64,000 bases of DNA from Eledone cirrhosa (taxonomy: Eukaryota). Positions 17,015-56,241 of the stretch are shown in pieces (the stretch's first letter is position 1; the number at the start of each line of letters is the position of its first letter). The notes under the pieces were generated by a model. It did not search any database. It was not told where the DNA came from and saw nothing but the letters and a program-made list of their open reading frames with translations. A program made the translations under genes and the position numbers. The stretch is taken from assembly GCA_964016885.1 (NCBI GenBank), contig OZ024752.1, forward strand, positions 5,394,001 through 5,458,000, given 5' to 3'.

Positions 17015-17034
17015 TTACATATCTTTTTTGATAG
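17015..17034 (-). CDS. Terminal coding exon (AIKKDM*)
   Basis: Strong pyrimidine tract ttttattttatttttttcag; phase 1 matches the TM exon; TAA at 17017-17015. Confidence 0.6.
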
Positions 17035-53700: not shown

Positions 53701-56241
53701 GCCTCCACATATGCCAGGCTGACGAAGAAGAGTCTGAGAGAACAGAAAACTAACTACAAACACCAATATTACTGTCTACAAGGCGTGTGTCCTCAGCACA
53801 CTACCTTATAACAGTGAGAGATGAAGCCTCTACACCTGACATGATTGGTGTCTCAATGTCTTACACCTTTGTAGCCTGAGACACATTCTGGATATCAAGT
53901 AGACTGACCGGGTCATAAACATTGAGGTCCTCAACTACGCCAAGATACTCAGCATATACACCCTGCTCCAACAGTGCCATCTGCACTGGCTCGATCATGT
54001 GCATTACATGCCGGACAGGAGGATCCCCAAACACCTACCATTTAGGGAACTGGCCACTGGCACAAGAACACGAGAACGACTTCATTTTCACATCAAAGAC
54101 ACCCAAAGCAGGGATATGAAGTTGATAGAACTGGACACCCAGAGATGGGAGGAAGTCGCTAGTGACACCTACAGGAGGGATATGAAGTTGATAGAACTGG
54201 ACACCCAGAGATGGGAGGAAGTCGCTAGTGACACCTACAGGAGGGATATGAAGTTGATAGAACTGGACACCCAGAGATGGGAGGAAGTCGCTAGTGACAC
54301 CTACAGGAGGGATATGAAGTTGATAGAACTGGACACCCAGAGATGGGAGGAAGTCGCTAGTGACACCTACAGGAGGGATATGAAGTTGATAGAACTGGAC
54401 ACCCAGAGATGGGAGGAAGTCGCTAGTGACACCTACAGGAGGGATATGAAGTTGATAGAACTGGACACCCAGAGATGGGAGGAAGTCACTAGTGACACCT
54501 ACAGGAGGGATATGAAGTTGATAGAACTGGACACCCAGAGATGGGAGGAAGTCGCTAGTGACACCTACAGGAGGGATATGAAGTTGATAGAACTGGACAC
54601 CCAGAGATGGGAGGAAGTCGCTAGTGACACCTACAGGAGGGATATGAAGTTGATAGAACTGGACACCCAGAGATGGGAGGAAGTCGCTAGTGACACCTAC
54701 AGGAGGGATATGAAGTTGATAGAACTGGACACCCAGAGATGGGAGGAAGTCGCTAGTGACATCTACAGGAGAGATATGCTCGAAAAAAGAACAACACAGT
54801 TGCACCAGAAGAGAGCAGCCTCTAGCCTGCCAAATCTCTGTCCTTGATAACCTGTCCTTCCCATACCAACATTGAAAGCAGACGTAAAATGACAATGTCT
54901 GCTTATGTCTAACGAAACCATTGGTAACGTATGAATAAATCAAATTGTTAATACAAATGTGTGTGTGTGTGTGTGAGTGTGTGAGTCTGTTTGTGTATAC
55001 CTATATAGAAATATATACTAAAAGAAAAGAGAGAATATAAAACAAGATCAAAACAAAAAGAAGACACAGGGTAAGAAGAAAAGCCACTGAGAAGGTCACA
55101 AGACGTGGATTAGGTAGATAATAAAACTGAAGTGAAACTAAACAGGTACGTGTGTTATATTGACAGCATGACCCTCCCAAAGTATCACTATATATACACA
55201 CATACGTACATATATACATATATACTGGCAAAAGGACTCTCCCAAAGTATAACTATATATACACACTTATGTACATCCAGCCTGTAGCTTTCGAGACGTT
55301 TGGGGGAGTCGGGCCGCTGACTACGAGTTTCCTCTCTTCACTGGCGGCTCGCTTAATAGAGGTAACTGGCGAATCTCGCGAGGGCACTTGGCTGTTTCAG
55401 CGCATTAGCCTCGCCATCACCCGAGGTAACGCTGCTAGTGTGCTGGCTTGCCTAAAAAATCATTAGAGAGGTTGCCCAGTACTCCTCGCGACGTTGCTGT
55501 CTTTTGCTCTGGTGTTGGCTCCGTTGTTCACCCCTTCCTTTACATTTTCTTTAATATTGCAACATTAAAGGAATATATCCTTCTGAAAGGATCGCGAGCA
55601 ATTTATGTCATTTAAGCATTTGTAATGTTATTTATATATATATATATATATTTAAAACATATTTGTTATGTTATTCTACTGTAAATTTATTTATATGCTT
55701 TGTATATATCATATGTAAACATACATATTGGCAAAATGACTCTCCCAAAGTATAACTATATATACACATATACGGCAAAATGACTCTCCCAAAGTATAAC
55801 TATATATACACATATACGTACATATATACACATATACGGCAAAAAGACTCCCCCCAAAGTATAACTATATACACACCCATACAAACACAATAATTTTCAT
55901 TATTATCATAATATATACATGTTATGGTATGCTTCCGTAACTCTTGATGGAGTCGTAGGGGTGCCGTAGTGAAATACGGCTTTTCTTGGGCATCTTAAGC
56001 CTGGCAGAGTCCTTCCCTCTCCAGGAATACATACATACATAGGTATTTATATACATACACACAGTGTGTATATATATATCCTTTTATGCCTTCATGTGGA
56101 ACGAGTTTATGGAAGTACGTAAGAGTACTTCAGAGAAATATGAATTTAAACTTTTCAAGCTAGACATTAAAAATCACGAATAAAGTTATACTTTTTTGAA
56201 TTTAAGTTTTACGACAATATTAAACAATGTTTACTCACCAT
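17015..56241 (-). CDS. Spliced gene model: type I membrane immunoglobulin-superfamily receptor, SP-(IgA-IgB)x3-TM-short tail, about 656 aa
   Basis: Exons 56241-56239, 48936-48867, 39195-38917, 36915-36604, 31480-31202, 29217-28906, 25558-25280, 23280-22969, 19659-19555, 17034-17015. All GT-AG and phase-compatible; total 1971 nt with no internal stop. Confidence 0.8.
17262..17468 (-). mobile_element. tRNA-derived SINE (first family)
   Basis: Reverse complement of the 7682/53068-type SINE body. Confidence 0.7.
17595..17779. mobile_element. hAT-type MITE with 8-bp TSD ATATAGAG
   Basis: TIRs CAGACATGAGAAAC / GTTTGACATGTCTG; ATATAGAG at 17587-17594 and 17780-17787; internal ggccc/gggcc subterminal motifs. 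Confidence 0.85.
17780..18069. repeat. 32-bp minisatellite, about 9 copies
   Basis: Unit atatagaggggtcactttagacytgacagaca. Confidence 0.95.
19555..19659 (-). CDS. Transmembrane exon ([35 protein letters not shown])
   Basis: Acceptor tatattttcag, donor AG|GTTGGT, 105 nt, phase 1-1; hydrophobic helix followed by a basic stop-transfer segment. Confidence 0.85.
20362..20408 (-). CDS. Candidate alternative terminal exon ([15 protein letters not shown]) for a secreted isoform
   Basis: Acceptor ttttttgacag in phase 1, S/T/P-rich reading, TAA then AATAAA 5 nt later. Confidence 0.3.
21870..22247 (+). mobile_element. Penelope-like element terminal fragment
   Basis: Contains a minimal hammerhead-like motif; inverted homolog at about 63757-63960; ends in a TA/TACA microsatellite. 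Left boundary is approximate. Confidence 0.55.
22149..22189 (+). ncRNA. Minimal type I hammerhead ribozyme-like motif (U3-A8 variant)
   Basis: CCC-UUGAGAA-GCCCA ac UGGGU-GAA-AC GUAC GU-A-GGUG. Confidence 0.6.
22244..22925. repeat. Compound (TA)/(TACA)/(CA) microsatellite
   Basis: Direct; related tracts at 27507-27797, 28399-28860, 35195-35497 and 36097-36558. Confidence 0.97.
22969..23280 (-). CDS. Ig-like domain B exon, copy 1 (membrane-proximal)
   Basis: gtgtttttag acceptor, G|GTAAGT donor, 312 nt, phase 1-1; FTLKC, W at C+10, [15 protein letters not shown]. Confidence 0.9.
23543..23917. repeat. (CAC/CAT)n trinucleotide tract (also 29480-29845 and 37178-37552)
   Basis: Direct. Confidence 0.95.
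24740..25010 (+). mobile_element. RTE LINE fragment in intron (copies at about 30.7 and 38.4 kb; partial copies at both duplication junctions)
   Basis: Degenerate [46 protein letters not shown]. Confidence 0.75.
25280..25558 (-). CDS. Ig-like domain A exon, copy 1
   Basis: ttttgttctttttcag acceptor, A|GTAAGT donor, 279 nt, phase 1-1; LIFQC, W at C+11, LHFT, YISC. Confidence 0.88.
26237..27245. repeat. 58-bp satellite array 1 (about 17 copies)
   Basis: Unit ccaccttatacaataaactactggatrttggaggaaacagtgtgatatttcacacayt. Confidence 0.97.
27246..27356 (-). mobile_element. 111-bp copied end of the Mag element at duplication junction 1
   Basis: Matches 40709-40819. Confidence 0.9.
27797..28398 (-). 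mobile_element. Non-autonomous RTE-derived element (5' UTR joined to 3' zinc-finger end) inside microsatellite
   Basis: Identical copy at 35495-36096 and diverged copy at 62989-63525; [22 protein letters not shown] zinc-finger remnant; ctaggagaaggaaaactctga motif of RTE-type 5' UTRs. Confidence 0.6.
28906..29217 (-). CDS. Ig-like domain B exon, copy 2
   Basis: Same splice sites and length as B1; 6 amino-acid differences. Confidence 0.9.
31202..31480 (-). CDS. Ig-like domain A exon, copy 2
   Basis: Same splice sites and length as A1; 2 amino-acid differences. Confidence 0.88.
32159..34933. repeat. 58-bp satellite array 2 (about 48 copies)
   Basis: Same unit as array 1. Confidence 0.97.
34934..35044 (-). 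mobile_element. 111-bp copied end of the Mag element at duplication junction 2
   Basis: Matches 27246-27356 and 40709-40819. Confidence 0.9.
35495..36096 (-). mobile_element. Non-autonomous RTE-derived element, duplicated copy
   Basis: Matches 27797-28398. Confidence 0.6.
36604..36915 (-). CDS. Ig-like domain B exon, copy 3
   Basis: Same splice sites and length; 6 amino-acid differences from B1. Confidence 0.9.
38917..39195 (-). CDS. Ig-like domain A exon, copy 3 (N-terminal, membrane-distal)
   Basis: Same splice sites and length; 11 amino-acid differences from A1. Confidence 0.88.
39874..40708. repeat. 58-bp satellite array 3 (about 14 copies)
   Basis: Same unit. Confidence 0.97.
40709..44240 (-). 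mobile_element. Mag-type Ty3/Gypsy LTR retrotransposon, internally deleted, inserted in the satellite with 5-bp TSD GATGG
   Basis: 5' LTR 44240-44006 (TG...CA); PBS TGGTGTCAGAA; gag with two Cys/His knuckles; KIDTGA protease; [15 protein letters not shown]; RNase H DASKHG, NDHKPL; integrase HxxH...CxxC; TSD at 40704-40708 and 44241-44245. Confidence 0.93.
44006..44240 (-). repeat. 5' LTR (235 bp) of the Mag element
   Basis: Starts TGTTCATG, ends TATAACAACA; contains AATAAA; followed 3 nt later by a tRNA-Leu-type PBS. Confidence 0.85.
44241..48151. repeat. 58-bp satellite array 4 (about 63 copies, higher-order structure, three 77-bp inserts)
   Basis: Same unit; inserts at 45610-45686, 45864-45940 and 46988-47064. 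Confidence 0.97.
48867..48936 (-). CDS. Signal-peptide exon ([23 protein letters not shown])
   Basis: Acceptor tttttcttttatatacag, donor G|GTAGGT, 70 nt, phase 0->1; Leu-rich core; joins exon A3 in frame (Y-V-P-T-T). Confidence 0.78.
49018..49200 (-). mobile_element. tRNA-derived SINE (first family)
   Basis: Matches 17262-17468. Confidence 0.65.
49300..49850 (+). mobile_element. Highly degenerate non-LTR RT fragment (R4/NeSL-like)
   Basis: [13 protein letters not shown] reading at about 49508-49552, resembling GIFQGDSLSPLLF. Confidence 0.4.
52542..52762. mobile_element. piggyBac-type MITE, inverted relative to the 16612 copy
   Basis: Same TIRs; TTAA on the left, TGAA on the right. Confidence 0.82.
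53068..53470 (+). mobile_element. Two tandem tRNA-derived SINEs (a third truncated head at about 53515)
   Basis: Repeated gagttgaaatctc/gagttaaaatccc...aactttgcctttcatcc...ggtcgataaaataaag. Confidence 0.75.
53545..54850 (+). mobile_element. Decayed RTE LINE fragment (second family) containing a 66-bp minisatellite
   Basis: [42 protein letters not shown]. Confidence 0.75.
54109..54776 (+). repeat. 66-bp minisatellite x10 ([22 protein letters not shown])
   Basis: Direct; nearly perfect copies. Confidence 0.97.
55267..55720 (+). mobile_element. 3' fragment of a CRE-like non-LTR retrotransposon (restriction-like endonuclease C-terminus + 3' UTR)
   Basis: [11 protein letters not shown]...FL..LA.RL....[20 protein letters not shown]; flanked on both sides by a gactctcccaaagtataactatatatacac tandem repeat. 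Confidence 0.7.

Follow-up and report, generated by a model that had tools for sequence, protein, structure and literature searches.

A shortened octopod immunoglobulin-type receptor gene with a triplicated two-domain cassette in Eledone cirrhosa

A stretch of 64,000 nucleotides from the octopod Eledone cirrhosa (assembly GCA_964016885.1, contig OZ024752.1, positions 5,394,001 to 5,458,000, here C12:5394001-5458000; hereafter the window) carries on its minus strand a gene predicted to encode a type I membrane receptor with six immunoglobulin (Ig) domains. Splice motifs were located and ten exons joined by coordinate, with AG at all nine acceptors and GT at all nine donors; together they sum to 1971 nt, corresponding to 656 amino acids and one stop codon. 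The eight introns that follow the leader exon all lie in phase 1. The predicted protein runs from a leader through three copies of a pair of Ig domains, A (93 codons) and B (104 codons), to a single strong transmembrane (TM) segment (Kyte-Doolittle 3.15) and a tail of 12 residues (Table 1). The leader was called from hydropathy and from the N-termini of homologues. Translation starts at the ATG of exon 2 in five of twelve homologue models, and the window protein may be 654 residues long, exon 1 being dispensable. Within each unit the conserved cysteines and tryptophan are found at C45-W56-C102 in A and at C143-W153-C207 in B, a cysteine spacing of 57 and 64 residues, respectively. Twenty N-glycosylation sequons are predicted, six per unit and two extra ones in unit 1. 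The initial annotation of this DNA had described a ten-exon, 656-residue frame with canonical splice sites, one Ig domain of the C...W...C type per phase-1 exon, heavy N-glycosylation with six named sequons in each unit and an origin by triplication of a two-exon cassette. All of these features were reproduced here, the last one as three A-B units with the same chimeric junction at both unit joints.

Table 1. Exons, tail exons and rearrangement points of the receptor gene. Positions are those of the window unless a chromosome coordinate is given.
Feature	Position	Strand	Remarks
Exon 1 (candidate, optional start; ATG only and GTGAGT donor)	56239..56241	-	Also at 9.23 and 39.20 Mb, including the donor
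Leader (signal peptide) exon with own ATG at codon 2	48867..48936	-	Matches octopus homologue N-termini; 4 copies across compared regions
Ig domain A1 (family D1)	38917..39195	-	Pfam ig E 0.03, under cut-off
Ig domain B1 (family D2, V-like)	36604..36915	-	Splice model, homologue match, structural match
Ig domain A2	31202..31480	-	Splice model
Ig domain B2	28906..29217	-	Splice model
Ig domain A3	25280..25558	-	Splice model
Ig domain B3	22969..23280	-	Splice model
TM exon, helix without charged residue	19555..19659	-	63% identical to O. bimaculoides TM segment
T1, short tail exon AIKKDM-stop	17015..17034	-	Begins AIK like first tail segment of O. vulgaris P0037
T2, tail exon, 57 nt, phase 1-1	11343..11399	-	Found at each of the three loci; similar to P0037's second tail segment
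T3, tail exon, 57 nt, phase 1-1, DIYVN tyrosine motif	7279..7335	-	4 copies at 9 Mb, 3 at 39 Mb
T4, tail exon, 36 nt, IDYLEV	G000:C12:5390803-5390838	-	3.2 kb beyond window start; 4 copies at 9 Mb, 3 at 39 Mb
Terminal exon with tandem tyrosine pair (L054)	G000:C12:39171035-39171151		Beyond gap after second exon 1 and leader; found once in genome search
Deletion breakpoint removing D4-D8 (TM-proximal sequence to intron after C2)	20717..20719	.	Shared with 9-Mb paralogue
Deletion breakpoint removing D3 (C2-type exon; to intron after B)	21864..21875	.	Window gene only
Tandem-duplication junction, units 1/2	35044..35045	.	Same sequence as 27356 junction
Tandem-duplication junction, units 2/3 (leader-A intron joined to copied A-B intron piece)	27356..27357	.	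Not found in 9-Mb paralogue

Exon B matches proteins of Octopus bimaculoides annotated as 'uncharacterized' (58% identical, E 6e-28; two matches among 39 candidates), and wider searches recovered 12 and 14 proteins from O. bimaculoides, O. sinensis, O. vulgaris and Argonauta together with one weak bivalve match. We take the predicted gene to be genuine, and not a series of chance open frames, because its exons match annotated octopus proteins and because copies of the leader, A, B and TM exons exist at two more loci on the same chromosome. In its full form the family comprises a leader, A, B, C2 and D4 to D8 (eight Ig domains in total), a TM segment and a tail built from small tyrosine-bearing segments. 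Leader, A, B and TM exons as well as tail segments align in the octopod homologues (O. bimaculoides LOC106874069, LOC106869178 and LOC106879981; O. sinensis/vulgaris LOC115212114 and LOC115212116; Argonauta hians P0042), in which B is 53-60% identical to that of the window gene, the number of domains varies and A is the most variable domain. Among 11 Octopus proteins A is 45% identical, compared to 73-78% for the other Ig domains. In contrast to the window gene, these homologues have a single A-B pair, up to six further Ig domains and long tyrosine tails, and in none of those examined is a threefold A-B array set directly on the TM segment. The window gene possesses the homologous leader-A-B N-terminus and the TM segment of the LOC106874069/LOC115212114 family and lacks its C2 and D4-D8 stalk, which was removed at mapped breakpoints. 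By these comparisons it is a derived, shortened family member rather than a full-length one. Profile searches revealed a distant octopus subfamily with A-B-A-TM architecture and short tails (P0069, P0083) and a partial cuttlefish relative with D4-D8, TM segment and a tyrosine-repeat tail (P0054); with the latter, the label of an octopod-only family was dropped. A member of the distant A-B-A-TM subfamily is located on another chromosome (G000:C1:171631673-171634503, L068-L070). The initial annotation could not assign the receptor to a named family, and this still stands with homologues annotated solely as 'uncharacterized'. We found no paper that names six of the homologous locus ids or describes such a cephalopod family in its main text; supplements and subscription papers may list them.

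A search of the 3.0-Gb genome returned seven matches to the B exons at three loci, all on one chromosome. The search for paralogues suggested by the initial annotation found exons of the gene at two further loci, near 9 and 39 Mb. The 39-Mb paralogue is full length (leader-A-B-C2-D4..D8-TM), and the 9-Mb paralogue reads leader-(gap)-B-A-B-A-B-C2-TM; an assembly gap occupies the expected place of its first A. A second leader, accompanied by exon 1, at 39.19 Mb runs into another assembly gap, and the terminal exon lies beyond this gap. A full-length paralogue is probably unassembled inside the gap at 39.18 Mb. The last ectodomain intron of the window gene is a mosaic of paralogue introns, switching at ~20718 and ~21870 (the deletion breakpoints of Table 1). 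As read from these breakpoints and from the junctions between units, the window gene is an eight-Ig receptor that lost Ig3-8 by two intronic deletions and in which Ig1-2 were triplicated. The cassette was also multiplied at the 9-Mb locus, with junctions that differ from those of the window gene, and its multiplication was therefore independent or was remodelled later. Arrays of a 58-bp minisatellite are found upstream of each A exon with unit-specific lengths (window 26237-27243, 32159-34931, 39874-40707 and 44250-48152); such arrays may promote unequal crossing-over. The intron between leader and A1 also contains a Gypsy-type element with broken frames (window 40698-44056, minus strand), which is likewise present at 9.21 Mb. 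It is very improbable that the triplication is an assembly artefact of merged haplotypes or the gene a silent recent duplicate, even though introns that are 99.7-99.9% identical and rich in minisatellites, gaps at the paralogous loci and the lack of an observed junction-spanning read would fit. The assembly is continuous over the 144 kb inspected around the window, stacking of alleles does not produce the same chimeric junction at both unit joints, and the 9-Mb locus has a multiplied cassette of its own with other junctions. Intact frames and splice sites throughout and differences that are replacement-only also weigh against this reading.

Recognition of the Ig fold by sequence profiles is poor. 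Pfam gave one weak match, below the cut-off, for four window exons and no V-set match for either of the two B exons tested. A fold check with Foldseek, also suggested by the initial annotation, was made with a homologue: the A+B region of O. bimaculoides P0032 modelled with alignment-guided AlphaFold2 as two all-beta Ig domains (predicted local distance difference test, pLDDT, 83; predicted template modelling score, pTM, 0.77) and had at least 500 Foldseek matches at E<=0.001, those listed being all Ig-containing chains (best E 1e-8). A single-sequence fold of the full-length protein P0001 reached a pLDDT of 35, and a PDB sequence search gave generic Ig matches to stalk domains only. In the VIA structural search the homologue B aligns to the T-cell receptor V domain, CD4 D1, P0 and CAR D1 (Z 10-11.5, root-mean-square deviation 2.3-2.6 Å, 92-99 residues). 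Strands C' and C'' are present in B, its best structural matches are V domains and it scores 0.93 for the V-set/I-set clusters of the Atlas. Domain A of the homologue model consists of strands A', B, C, C', D, E, F and G. The tyrosine corner motif D-x-G/A-x-Y-x-C is absent in both domains, B reading EDNMSIIC. On the homologue model A and B are atypical Ig domains and B is V-like, the latter being called atypical because the tyrosine corner motif and a Pfam V-set match are missing.

The units of the cassette differ in their exons to a much greater extent than in their introns. With simple repeats masked, units 1 and 2 differ at 32 of 591 exon bases compared to 2 of 2208 intron bases (5.4% versus 0.09%, Fisher 4e-20), and the other two unit pairs differ at 22/591 exon versus 4/2218 intron bases (Fisher 6e-12) and at 13/591 versus 6/2208 (1e-5). 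The two B-A introns differ at four of 1538 bases. All 22 variable codons alter the residue (12/12 in A, 10/10 in B), where random placement would leave roughly three codons of each exon type silent (P about 0.018 each), and nine variable codons carry multiple changes. For six A and seven B copies from the three loci, the ratio of nonsynonymous to synonymous substitution rates (dN/dS, omega) under model M0 is 3.0 for A (p 0.002) and 3.4 for B (p 0.007), and twice the log-likelihood difference between M1a and M2a is 43 (A) and 62 (B), so that a class of selected sites is strongly preferred. The dN/dS code was purpose-written, and M0 likelihoods and the omega of A were checked against IQ-TREE. 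Aligned to the model, variable sites lie on strand C (in B at alternate positions around the tryptophan), in the C' and C'' region, the EF loop and strands F and G, whereas strands A', B and D have none. This places 12/12 variable sites of A and 10/10 of B on one face (binomial P 2e-4 and 6e-4, with face boundaries set post hoc). The module copies likely differ almost solely at the predicted binding face, the C-C'-C''-F-G side. Sites backing different groupings of the copies interleave along B, a pattern suggestive of conversion or unequal crossing-over. Divergence that peaks in exons beside homogenised introns has been described for opsins as a signature of selection resisting gene conversion (PMC3924837, in part), and bovine CEACAM32 displays the same exon/intron pattern, its selected sites being located at the CFG face (PMC7042247, in part). 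Divergence that is confined to exons, consists of replacements only and falls on one face is a more telling feature of the gene than those listed in the initial annotation. Tandem repeats that evolve in concert and diverge by replacements only would also be in line with a gamete or reproductive-tract recognition protein whose face evolves fast via sexual selection or conflict, and bovine CEACAM32 is testis-specific (PMC7042247, in part). We consider a reproductive role distinctly improbable, since the tyrosine-motif tails of the family point to immune-type signalling.

The initial annotation had closed the gene with T1. This exon is indeed present with a strong acceptor, but it may not be the last one, as more family tail exons are found downstream. 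T1 is probably a truncated first tail exon, judged by its position, its phase and the three residues AIK. Its inclusion terminates the protein both on read-through and when an internal GTAAAT donor is spliced. Conservation of T1 with the 9-Mb paralogue is 100% over 161 bases, and no match to it was found in the 39-Mb paralogue region examined. T2, T3 and T4 are in frame with the TM exon and kept at all three loci, and T3 and T4 are tandemly repeated in the paralogues. The short tail is, as far as these exons predict, one of two possible protein ends: inclusion of T1 would lead to the short tail, and skipping of T1 to a partial tyrosine tail. The intron between T3 and T4 harbours a Ty3/Gypsy-type long terminal repeat retroelement (protease, reverse transcriptase, RNase H and integrase in stop-broken frames; window 182-3359, plus strand), which is found in the 9-Mb paralogue too.

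Full-length relatives end in a terminal exon with a C-terminal tyrosine pair, AYAAL/TIYASL at 39.17 Mb, NYAEL/TIYADL in O. vulgaris P0037 and VYADL/TIYADI in Argonauta. The consensus of the immunoreceptor tyrosine-based switch motif (ITSM) was taken from general knowledge for motif comparison. The second site of the pair fits TxYxx[ILV], and the first fits loosely the ITIM consensus (immunoreceptor tyrosine-based inhibitory motif), as defined in bioRxiv 10.1101/2022.03.04.482883 (in part). This tandem ITIM/ITSM pair is absent in the window gene; the short tail has no tyrosine and the long option has one IxYxxV motif, in T4. No additional tail exon was found in 57 kb beyond T4, and the terminal ITIM/ITSM-like exon was not found within 60 kb of gap-free sequence past the window start. 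Searches for tail exons with PAM30 were swamped by TA-repeat matches. A possible last exon at G000:C12:5388538 was discarded for its wrong phase and for stops or indels differing between copies. Downstream of the tail lies an inverted copy of intron-1 sequence (G000:C12:5374500-5382800), also present at 9.11-9.12 Mb, and this copy may mark a rearrangement that removed the terminal exon.

Tail exons vary in the homologues as well. For O. bimaculoides, RefSeq contains many tail isoforms that differ in tail exons, and RefSeq isoform listings usually reflect RNA evidence. For the window gene, contigs of run X9 (kind of run unrecorded) cover the bin of the TM exon and include one letter that agrees with the 39-Mb paralogue as well as a further TM variant, a weak signal. 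X9 has zero cover in the bins flanking the TM exon and in the bin with exon 17034, and X2 has no cover; neither bears on the tail. The same holds for the 12 joints listed, among which there is no joint from TM to 17034, given a repeat mask over 17032-17062 and 371 loose ends outside this list. If T1 were skipped, the main product could be a signalling receptor and not a decoy, with T2-T3-T4 (YVN, YDSI, IDYLEV) recruiting Grb2- or SHP-type adaptors. The good splice sites and intact frames of T2 to T4, the 39-Mb paralogue without a T1 match and the isoforms of O. bimaculoides are in line with such a receptor, which we nevertheless regard as improbable in view of the strong acceptor and conservation of T1, the missing terminal pair and the lack of further tail exons in the 57 kb searched.

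SIRP-alpha, PECAM-1 and receptors of the Siglec/CD22 type are type I proteins with several Ig domains, and their C-termini carry a tandem tyrosine pair. The full-length octopod relatives are similar to them in a pair spaced about 25-30 residues, a resemblance only, and the window gene is unlike them, its pair being missing. A feature search returned CD22-, ALCAM- and VCAM-like clusters. Paired receptors combine similar ectodomains with different tails. Such an arrangement is found here, with at least four predicted family copies on one chromosome and the terminal pair assembled once. The activating partner of a paired system was not seen: none of the three TM exons compared encodes a charged residue, and no partner with an ITAM (immunoreceptor tyrosine-based activation motif) was found among the assembled copies. 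With its uncharged TM segment, the window protein is therefore predicted, from the sequence and established knowledge, to be unlike an adaptor-coupled activating receptor. The closest parallel in organization is provided by the CEACAM family. CEACAM1 is an inhibitory ITIM/ITSM member that stands beside paralogues and decoys of similar ectodomain, as in the octopod family (PMC5112662, in part), and loss of stalk exons, conversion of introns and not of ligand exons, and selection on the CFG face link the window gene to CEACAMs, especially to bovine CEACAM32 (PMC7042247, in part). However, there is no sign of orthology, the stalk domains sharing only generic Ig-level similarity to CEA (E 1e-4). 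The diverging units are tandem modules within one gene here but separate paralogues in CEACAMs, and A and B retain the B-F cysteines that the CEACAM N domain lacks. By analogy the window gene would work like a CEACAM, but it is not a CEACAM.

Invertebrate systems offer a second comparison. The Alr proteins of Hydractinia are type I receptors with atypical V/I-set domains and ITIM/ITAM tails that evolve by duplication and exon shuffling (bioRxiv 10.1101/2022.03.04.482883, in part). In that source, domain 1 of Alr is without pin cysteines and an Fn3-like fold is found in most Alr proteins, whereas the window gene keeps the Cys-Trp-Cys pattern and has no Fn3 domain. Nephrin/SYG-2-like mollusc proteins resemble the family stalk D4-D8 (25% identity, E 1e-30 to cuttlefish P0059; a scallop 'syg-2-like' protein); they differ from the window gene, in which D4-D8 are lost and there is no Fn3, and in their N-terminal pair and tail. 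The gene could accordingly be thought of as a polymorphic self-recognition or cell-identity molecule, functionally like Hydractinia Alr1/Alr2 or Drosophila Dpr/DIP, with faces that give allele- or paralogue-specific binding between cells. Atypical Ig domains mostly missed by Pfam, an exon-shuffled family with tyrosine tails as in Alr (bioRxiv 10.1101/2022.03.04.482883, in part), the nephrin/SYG-2-like stalk and the further TM variant in run X9 would all agree with this. Octopods are not colonial, though, and three differing modules on one chain would fit broad capture better than a single self code, and we hold self recognition to be rather unlikely.

We favour, with about even confidence, the reading that the window gene encodes a weakly or non-signalling decoy or recognition receptor whose modules were diversified by selection. 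Three modules would show three versions of the family ligand face, which would be the C-C'-C''-F-G side, on a rod that is short and heavily glycosylated. Introns would be homogenised by gene conversion or unequal crossing-over, with selection maintaining the differences among exons, and the ligand would be fast-changing, for example a microbial or parasite adhesin. The protein would act beside a full-length, likely inhibitory (ITIM/ITSM-type) family member, and full-length relatives would recruit SHP-type phosphatases. An inhibitory receptor accompanied by decoys has been described for CEACAM1 (PMC5112662, in part). Several points weigh against this reading. TxYxx[ILV] occurs in only one of nine Octopus tails scanned and most of them carry YxN/YxxM repeats, therefore 'inhibitory' is not a description of every family member. 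A window gene that retains T2-T4 with one IxYxxV motif may signal, and gaps in the assembly, at 9.21 and 39.18 Mb, conceal copies. The fold was modelled on a homologue that is 26% (A) and 53% (B) identical to the window domains, and A is barely covered in the VIA search. Gene conversion violates the tree assumption and can inflate site-model tests, and the boundaries of the face behind the counts of 12/12 and 10/10 were set post hoc, via the alignment and not from coordinates. No junction of the gene (B-A, B-TM or TM-tail) was seen in contigs of four runs, those examined spanning the TM exon to exon 17034. Finally, rapid evolution of a surface also fits gamete or self recognition.

Other features of the window are repeats. 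Copies of an RTE-type long interspersed nuclear element lie at 60040-63006 and 13470-16030 (both minus strand), the first with a stop-to-stop frame of 988 codons, and near-identical copies of them occur in all three regions compared. A 66-bp tandem array (54110-54778) gives rise to a spurious repeat frame of 314 codons.

The building blocks of the window gene, exon duplication, exon loss and fast-evolving Ig faces, are already known from CEACAM, opsin and Alr families; the octopod gene itself is undescribed. By term counts, a 2025 review of invertebrate Ig superfamily proteins contains no mention of octopus or cephalopods (PMC11999971). In a broader and tentative view, possible although we do not expect it to hold, octopods would have evolved independently an immune-checkpoint system of the CEACAM/SIRP kind, in which a coleoid-wide inhibitory eight-Ig receptor is accompanied by young truncated decoys. 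These would have multiplied the ligand-binding A-B cassette, at two loci and through different junctions, and an arms race against pathogens would have diversified the binding face of each copy. If true, one chain would display three specificities. Self/non-self receptors of cephalopods are poorly described, and the locus offers a concrete family with a conserved ITIM/ITSM-like member and truncated derivatives, together with a short list of putatively selected residues on one face per module. The contrast of exons and introns within a single gene would be a clean natural case of selection withstanding homogenisation.

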